This document shows, piece after piece, positions 38,810-39,409 of a stretch of DNA of 40,995 nt. The stretch lies in sequence record PP430152.1; one strand, written 5' to 3'. Both the position numbers and the translations under genes were made by a program. Numbering within the stretch: position 1 is the stretch's first letter; every line of letters starts with the position of its first letter. Under the pieces are notes generated by a model. That model was not told the origin of the DNA. It was given only the letters and a program-made list of their open reading frames with translations, and ran no database searches. This DNA comes from Enterobacteria phage FtMidnight.

Positions 38810-39409
38810 ATGACTGCAAAGAAAACCACTACCGCCCGCAAAAACGCCGCCAAAAAGGTTGACGAAGCAACCCCAGTAATTGGACTGGCTGAAATCGTTG
38901 CTTCCGGTGCAAACGGCATGTACACTAGCCCCGAAGTTCACGCACCGCTTGTTGAAGCTGGTTTTGTGGAAATCAACCCTGATATGGTCAACGAAGCGGG
39001 CGAAATCGCAACCCGCGCAACTCACAAAGGTATTGAAGAAATGCAGACCCCGGAAAGCACCGCAACTGAAGCTGTTGCCGCCCCTGTTACTGAAGTAAAA
39101 GGCTTCAAAATTGAAGATGGGATTCCCGCGCCTACTTCTGTTGGCCGTGGCCGTGGTGGCAATGTTTACCCGTTTGACGAACTGGAACCCGGCCAAAGCT
39201 TCTTTGTTGAAGCAACTGAAGACCGCCCGAACCCGGCCAAAGCCCTTGCTTCTACCGTTTCCAGCGCAACCGCCCGCTATGCCGTACCTTGTGAAAGCGG
39301 TGCAACCAAGCTGAACAAGAAAGGCGAAACCGTGCCGGTCATGGTGAAGACCCGTGAATTTGCAATCCGCAAGGTGGAAGGCGGGGCGCGTATTTGGCGC
39401 ATTGCCTAA
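38810..39409 (+). CDS. hypothetical protein with Lys-rich N-terminus
   Basis: 199 aa; strong RBS AAGGAAG; followed by a strong terminator. Confidence 0.45.
   Translation: MTAKKTTTARKNAAKKVDEATPVIGLAEIVASGANGMYTSPEVHAPLVEAGFVEINPDMVNEAGEIATRATHKGIEEMQTPESTATEAVAAPVTEVKGFKIEDGIPAPTSVGRGRGGNVYPFDELEPGQSFFVEATEDRPNPAKALASTVSSATARYAVPCESGATKLNKKGETVPVMVKTREFAIRKVEGGARIWRIA

Follow-up and report, generated by a model that had tools for sequence, protein, structure and literature searches.

What does a protein do whose gene sits between the early genes and the lysis cassette of a phage, and which matches a family catalogued only under a DUF number? The question is raised by the gene at 38810-39409 of Enterobacteria phage FtMidnight (PP430152.1), which we have examined within a window of 40,995 nucleotides, that is, the whole stretch of DNA analysed and approximately a complete siphovirus genome (about 41 kb, 46.4% GC). 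A preliminary description of the locus had presented the gene as self-contained and probably highly expressed, and its product as resembling a histone or nucleoid protein.

The DUF7303 family and its genomic position

That the 199-codon frame is coding, as the preliminary description had it, is backed by a full-length match of the product to Pfam DUF7303 (PF23978; E 1.4e-71, residues 15-198 of 199, with 240.4 bits for the profile against a curated cut-off of 27), by a match to phrog_7597 (E 1.2e-73) and by homologs in more than 1000 clusters (1088 at 50% identity, nearly all of 170-250 aa). All residues invariant in a 107-sequence alignment of the family are kept in the FtMidnight protein (YPF, SFF, ST, R156, R182, F184, G192 and R197), and the 257-aa ORF overlapping the gene on the minus strand (38639-39412) is a shadow ORF. 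The gene adds a member to an already catalogued, uncharacterised family: "hypothetical protein" is the label in all 126 phage records with a DUF7303 homolog, Kakheti25 included, and the KL1 paper lists the homolog gp55 as "unknown" (PMC3483164). A search of the literature on DUF7303 or on Septimatrevirus expression, in which part of the queries were too loose, returned nothing useful. Searches of NCBIfam, PADLOC and PDB sequences with the 199-aa protein gave nothing significant, and a role as a defence-system protein was discarded as it has no PADLOC match; an Rfam search of the whole window revealed no known RNA element, either within the gene or beside it. Within the coding sequence lies a 15-nt exact direct repeat, GAACCCGGCCAAAGC (39185-39199 and 39229-39243), the copies of which are read in two different frames, as EPGQS and NPAKA; a length of 15 nt was reached in 1 of 1000 codon shuffles, and the repeat is missing from 23 relatives.

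An identical gene occurs on an IMG/VR contig, on a JGI contig (metagenome 3300028601) and in the SRA assembly SRR8449815. The nearest cultured relatives belong to the Septimatrevirus group (Pseudomonas phages 73, Kakheti25, Ab26 and Kopi; Stenotrophomonas phages DLP1/2; Burkholderia phage KL1) and are about 60-72% identical in the DUF7303 protein, the same range of identity being found to proteins of Pseudomonas, Stenotrophomonas and Xanthomonas phages. More widely, the gene is present in phages of Pseudomonas, Xanthomonas, Acinetobacter, Burkholderia, Rhodobacter, Sphingomonas, Escherichia and Klebsiella. Such members as Pseudomonas phage 73 ORF052, Ab26 ORF52, KL1 gp55 and Kopi gp32 have the same length and domain order as the FtMidnight protein, and the genomic position and the downstream terminator are also the same.

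Synteny was mapped by tblastn in 80 related viral loci, fetched by a search with a 14-sequence alignment. Across these loci the gene order runs from a VRR-NUC-like nuclease, by way of further genes (dCMP deaminase, 115-aa ORF), to a small hydrophobic ORF and DUF7303, and from there through the terminator and the lysis cassette to TerS and TerL, on one strand throughout and in an invariant order, with which the annotation of Kopi agrees. The lysis cassette right after the gene comprises a DUF7940 holin, a Phage_lysozyme protein and Rz. DUF7303 is thus the last of the rightward early/middle genes and is followed immediately by the lysis, terminase and structural genes; it keeps this position down to about 31-40% protein identity; the location between early genes and lysis cassette that was first noticed in FtMidnight alone is therefore a conserved one. 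Conservation of DUF7303 itself is about 70%, against 40-45% for its neighbours, and is on par with that of the structural genes, which fits a core function. On the strength of these sequence comparisons, we regard it as a core gene of the Septimatrevirus-like siphovirus lineage.

Two IMG/VR contigs (3300036952_000009 and 3300036957_000006) hold no lysis-cassette homologs between the DUF7303 terminator and TerS; the interval is about 680 bp and TerS follows directly, so that in these phages the lysis genes are either elsewhere or different. The last place that the gene occupies in many records might suggest that it marks a physical genome end (cos site). This was rejected, as the last place reflects a convention of deposition: the ends of the Ab26 genome were merely aligned to those of related phages (PMC4482731), and Loki, a relative, is circularly permuted and has no fixed ends (PMC5313236).

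Transcription and translation signals

The signals around the gene (Table 1) were called as consensus matches and were compared with those of the related loci. Matches to the sigma70 consensus peak just upstream of the DUF7303 gene, at 0.83 per locus per 100 nt as compared with 0.05 inside the gene. In about 45 of 67 relatives, a dedicated TTGACA-16/17-TAnAAT promoter (11/12 in 23 of these) separates the small upstream ORF from the DUF7303 gene; A/T-rich tracts precede it, 36-68 nt lie between its end and the ATG, and an AAGGAG ribosome-binding site (RBS) comes after it, at the same place as the RBS of FtMidnight. Where the mRNA is predicted to begin, 25 of the 33 relatives examined have a 5-bp hairpin, the pairing of which is kept despite sequence change, and which is probably an mRNA stabiliser. 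These hairpins are GC-rich, lie about 5-30 nt after the -10 element and have stems such as GTCGC/GCGAC, ACCGC/GCGGT, CTGCA/GCAG and TGCCG/CGGCA, with changes on both sides; the loci concerned are L003, L005-L010, L013, L017, L018, L021, L023, L025-L027, L030, L032, L033, L036, L037, L043 and L052 of our collection.

Table 1. Predicted features of the DUF7303 locus of FtMidnight, numbered as in the window
Feature	Position	Strand	Remark
Sigma70-type promoter-like site, TTGACA-17-TATAGT, 11/12	38548-38576	+	Consensus match; precedes 62-aa ORF
Small upstream ORF, phrog_6168, hydrophobic N-terminus	38602-38790	+	Conserved upstream neighbour in most relatives
RBS GTAAGGAAG, core TAAGGA at 38795-38800, 9 nt before ATG	38794-38802	+	Pairs at -6.1 kcal/mol
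DUF7303 coding sequence, 199 aa plus stop	38810-39409	+	ATG start; profile matches, homolog clusters
Disordered basic tail, residues 1-24, MTAKKTTTARKNAAKK...	38810-38881	+	pLDDT 52-55; A-rich unstructured initiation region
Acidic winged-helix-like N-domain, residues 25-80	38882-39049	+	Confident in AlphaFold2 model
Flexible length-variable linker, residues 81-117, ending in IPxP...GRGRGG	39050-39160	+	pLDDT 58-79
Basic C-domain, residues 118-199	39161-39406	+	Invariant motifs YPF, SFF, ASTVSSAxxRYA helix, GARVWR
Intrinsic terminator, AACCCCGG-TTCG-CCGGGGTT then T8	39432-39457	+	Top local match; 22 nt past stop codon
Candidate weak lysis-cassette promoter, -10-like TACAAT at 39473-39478	39450-39478	+	Read from sequence

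FtMidnight departs from most relatives in that both the dedicated promoter and the 5' hairpin are absent upstream of its DUF7303 ATG. The small upstream ORF (62 aa from the TTG at 38602, 59 aa from the ATG at 38611) ends 19 nt before the DUF7303 gene, and no promoter-like site was found when 38577-38810, the stretch from the promoter of this ORF to the DUF7303 ATG, was scanned. The unit is therefore probably bicistronic in FtMidnight, and, to judge from the sequence, a single transcript from the promoter before the 62-aa ORF probably covers both this ORF and DUF7303; that promoter belongs among the similar early promoters of the genome (repeat family D1). The term "self-contained" used in the preliminary description thus holds for the family, with its own promoter and terminator, but not strictly for FtMidnight, where expression could also be lower than in the relatives owing to the two missing elements.

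Other predicted early promoters of the window deserve mention in their own right. An exact 10-mer, TATTATTGAA, comprising the -10 element and the discriminator, is common to five predicted strong early promoters (30978-30987 on the minus strand; 34297-34306, 36383-36392, 37268-37277 and 37507-37516 on the plus strand). Repeats of (C)ATTGAAC occur in the spacer of several of them and just downstream (e.g. 37245-37285), and CATTGAA is found in 38 copies genome-wide against 12.2 +/- 3.3 expected; the whole set may represent a promoter family with an operator, or may partly reflect codon bias. Where the leftward replication genes meet the rightward early genes, two near-consensus promoters stand divergently back to back (31590-31653), with TTGACA-17-TATGAT on the minus strand (31618-31590) and TTGACA-17-TAGGAT on the plus strand (31625-31653).

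Translation of the DUF7303 mRNA also appears to be favoured, if not in the superlative terms first used. The RBS, taken at first sight for the strongest in the region, is a good one; it nevertheless ranks third within 35.6-41 kb, behind those of the starts at 40693 and 36425, and about 11th-13th among 45 starts genome-wide. The start region is nearly devoid of folding (-1.0 versus -8.2 kcal/mol) and rich in A (fraction 0.42 versus 0.26). This is quite general in the family: over 44 loci, the interval from -20 to +25 folds at -3.5 kcal/mol as compared with -9.7 for internal windows (p about 1e-13), and the A fraction of codons 2-13 is 0.34 versus 0.24. Codon usage is like that of the capsid and tail genes, with rank 8 of 41 in the window.

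The terminator, described from the outset as the strongest, is indeed the best canonical one in the genome. Its hairpin (39432-39451) has an 8-bp stem with six GC pairs and a 4-nt loop and is followed by a T8 run to 39457; a folding energy of -17.6 kcal/mol (z = -2.5) was computed for the 66-nt region, and in a genome scan no second site combined an uninterrupted T-run with a perfect GC-rich stem. A strong terminator, defined as a GC-rich hairpin plus T-run within 150 nt of the stop codon (usually at 20-65 nt), follows the DUF7303 homolog in 61 of 79 loci (77%), whereas it follows 53 of 1656 control ORF ends of the same loci (3.2%); many of these loci are related by descent and do not count as independent events. 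The terminator persists down to about 35% protein identity, and its stem sequences differ among distant relatives. In many relatives (e.g. at 4075-4100 in locus L003, and in L006, L007, L010 and L033), the stop codon is separated from the terminator by a further GC-rich tetraloop hairpin that has no T-run, so that two hairpins stand in tandem at the 3' end; the counterpart of the additional hairpin in FtMidnight is a weak AACAA/TTGTT one (39408-39421).

Taken together, promoter, A/T tracts, 5' hairpin, RBS, unstructured start and terminator amount to a maximal-expression cassette across the family, and for the family it is well supported that this cassette is built for very high, early expression driven by the host polymerase, as read from sequence. 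The early guess that the product is abundant accordingly finds support in indirect but convergent signals (terminator, promoter, RBS, start region and codons). High predicted expression, the capsid-like codon usage and the adjoining late block would also suit a virion or assembly protein, e.g. an internal or decoration protein whose gene lies apart from the structural module. We consider this highly improbable, since the strongest terminator separates the gene from the late block, the promoter is of the early consensus type, two domains joined by a long disordered linker are atypical for capsid or tail parts, and the records bear the same plain label, that of Kakheti25 among them. Virion proteins are mentioned for Ab26 in the paper on that phage (PMC4482731).

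Elsewhere in the window, the early genes at 30488-30982 and 31000-31554, both on the minus strand and behind near-consensus promoters (at 31010 and 31618, minus strand), also have high codon-usage scores; they code for a DUF7173 protein and a protein without a Pfam match, and on these signals their products are probably abundant too.

Downstream of the terminator, the candidate promoter of the lysis cassette has a T-rich, poor -35 element that overlaps the T-run, and elements of the form TTGCC[TC]-18-TATACT or TTTTCT-17/18-TACAAT follow the terminator in many relatives, with modest enrichment. A sigma70-type site, GTGACA-17-TATAGT (40938-40966), precedes TerS; its equivalents in relatives (L004-L068) are nTGACA or TTAACA-17-TATAGT. 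Conserved across about 40 of 52 related loci, with 17-37 nt between its end and the TerS start, this site is, from its sequence and place, likely the promoter of the packaging and structural operon. The late structural region (1-20000) contains 13 sigma70-like matches where 21.6 +/- 4.4 are expected and has no canonical strong terminator, which is consistent with one long operon.

These downstream features bear on a first alternative role, that of a switch from early to late expression: the protein would accumulate and then either activate the weak promoter abutting the terminator or drive read-through of the terminator into the late genes. As with lambda Q, DUF7303 is always the last rightward, same-strand gene before the late block, followed by a terminator, the lysis genes and the terminase and structural genes, a layout equivalent to the Q-tR'-S/R/Rz-Nu1/A order. 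The depletion of promoters in the late region, the poor -35 of the element after the terminator (which would suit dependence on an activator), the hint of a winged helix in the fold, and the 5' hairpin of the relatives, which could be a nut-like RNA site, all point in the same direction. However, there is no similarity to Q, N or any other late-regulator family in Pfam, PHROG, NCBIfam or PDB. Unlike the PR'-tR' arrangement, the terminator lies 22 nt past the stop codon with no promoter in between (39300-39432 scanned), and the separate, conserved TerS promoter argues against a dependence of the late operon on read-through, which weakens the idea that late transcription comes solely from read-through of the lambda Q kind. 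FtMidnight, moreover, does not have the 5' hairpin, and very high expression is unusual for a regulator that acts at a single site. On balance, we judge a late switch rather unlikely.

Domain architecture and charge

A structure prediction, proposed in the preliminary description as a check, was obtained with AlphaFold2 from the 107-sequence alignment (mean pLDDT 86) and yields two confident domains, a basic disordered tail and a flexible linker (Table 1). The linker is 25-58 residues long across the family, and more in long members, with P108 nearly invariant. Long members differ by longer tails, linkers or wing insertions, and P0268 is a frameshifted copy; none of the members checked for domain fusions has an informative one. 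Structural matches in BFVD are to uncharacterised phage proteins only, among them free-standing proteins of 60-86 aa corresponding to a single domain.

The N-domain has a layout of helix, beta-hairpin wing and helix that recalls MarR/PadR winged-helix proteins, and its best structural and profile matches are to the segment of recognition helix and wing in MarR-family proteins. These signals are weak: Pfam HTH_27/34/45 in 6 of 107 members and the MarR structure 7l1i at E 0.17-0.28 are all below significance. Unlike winged-helix DNA binders, the N-domain does not offer a basic DNA-contacting surface. Its net charge is -7 in FtMidnight, which is more acidic than the family median of -4 (range -9 to +1), and this acidity across the family argues against DNA binding by the N-domain. 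The C-domain is the most conserved part of the protein, is rich in conserved Arg, Ser and Thr and has a median charge of +4 over the 107 members (tail +2, N-domain -4). A structural search with it gave no significant match and no solved analogue. In our reading of the model, its succession of secondary-structure elements would be compatible with a winged helix whose wing is enlarged. A tandem duplication of the two domains, as in RepE-like double winged-helix proteins, was rejected (hhalign probability 0.2%). Binding of nucleic acid by the C-domain is plausible from its charge and its conserved Arg, Ser and Thr residues.

What, then, remains of the proposed likeness to histones? The Lys-rich N-terminus is real for residues 1-20 alone (5 K and 1 R, net +4), but the protein as a whole is mildly acidic (pI 5.8, net charge -2, with -9 over residues 21-90). 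A histone-like or nucleoid-associated protein would coat DNA through this tail, and several features are in its favour: similar basic tails recur in the family, the predicted abundance is high, and linker histones likewise combine basic tails with a winged helix, which the N-domain resembles. Nevertheless, the tail is short (median 12 residues, with 3 K/R) and its sequence is not conserved, the winged-helix-like domain is acidic throughout the family, the protein is neither strongly basic nor endowed with a long Lys-rich repeat, and no match to the HU/IHF, H-NS, Lsr2 or histone families was found by sequence or by fold. The Lys codons coincide with the A-rich unstructured start of the mRNA, which translation efficiency explains; the Lys-rich start is at least partly due to A-rich codons favouring translation initiation. 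We therefore regard a histone-like function as improbable.

The acidic N-domain calls for a further alternative, a host-takeover or anti-defence protein that would be made first and in bulk and would inhibit some abundant and conserved protein of the host (RNA polymerase, say, or a nucleoid protein or nuclease) by binding it directly, perhaps through the N-domain and the linker. Several phage inhibitor proteins are acidic, as are the N-domain and parts of the linker here; the expression cassette is of the early, high-level type, and neither enzymatic motifs nor a match to a named family are found. Such a role is hard to reconcile with a strictly conserved core gene in a fixed position among phages of many hosts, as anti-defence genes are usually sporadic and variable, and conservation is highest in the basic C-domain rather than in the acidic region. 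PADLOC, a library of defence and not of anti-defence proteins, gave no match. A takeover protein thus seems to us a doubtful candidate.

Proposed function and comparison with known systems

The reading that we tentatively favour, as a possibility still somewhat short of probable, is that the DUF7303 protein is an abundant early nucleic-acid-binding adaptor, produced from a high-expression cassette whose terminator insulates the lysis genes. We infer this model from the architecture, in which the winged-helix assignment of the N-domain stays below significance by every method. According to the model, the protein would be made early and in large amounts by the host RNA polymerase and would act stoichiometrically. 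The basic C-domain and the tail would hold nucleic acid, with the flexible linker, which ends in an RG-rich segment, as a tether, while a protein partner, such as RNA polymerase or a factor for replication or recombination, would be held by the acidic N-domain. Because the holin and endolysin genes lie immediately behind a very strong early promoter, transcription has to be terminated efficiently; the strong terminator would thus most simply serve as an insulator that keeps heavy early transcription out of these genes, which would use their own weaker signals downstream of it. A role as the single-stranded DNA-binding protein of the phage (SSB) was also considered and is unlikely, as a Sak4-type AAA_24 protein and its DUF669 partner are already encoded in the replication module.

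A bolder version, which we would put forward as speculation with little likelihood, is that DUF7303 represents an unrecognised class of core phage regulators, in which the N-domain of an abundant two-domain adaptor would bind host RNA polymerase or another conserved host machine and the C-domain DNA or RNA, so as to shut off the consensus early promoters and bring on the adjoining late genes. If true, this class would be spread through a lineage whose phage protein clusters number more than 1000 and which includes therapeutic Pseudomonas phages. Septimatrevirus phages of Pseudomonas aeruginosa, Stenotrophomonas, Acinetobacter and Burkholderia are under consideration for phage therapy, and a role of DUF7303 in host takeover, in transcription timing or in DNA handling would be worth knowing for a gene that is the best insulated of the non-structural ones in this lineage and probably also the most strongly expressed. 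The cassette, moreover, shows how very high expression can be achieved in a compact natural form beside toxic genes. For FtMidnight alone, the product is an ordinary hypothetical protein of a catalogued DUF family; it is the family that deserves experiment.

Parallels may also be drawn with the p6 protein of phi29, TF1 of SPO1 and D5 of T5, which are abundant early phage DNA-binding proteins. Although the DUF7303 protein has no sequence or fold similarity to them and is near neutral or acidic where they are basic, it is likewise small and non-enzymatic and, judging from its signals, strongly expressed early, and it would plausibly act stoichiometrically on nucleic acid.
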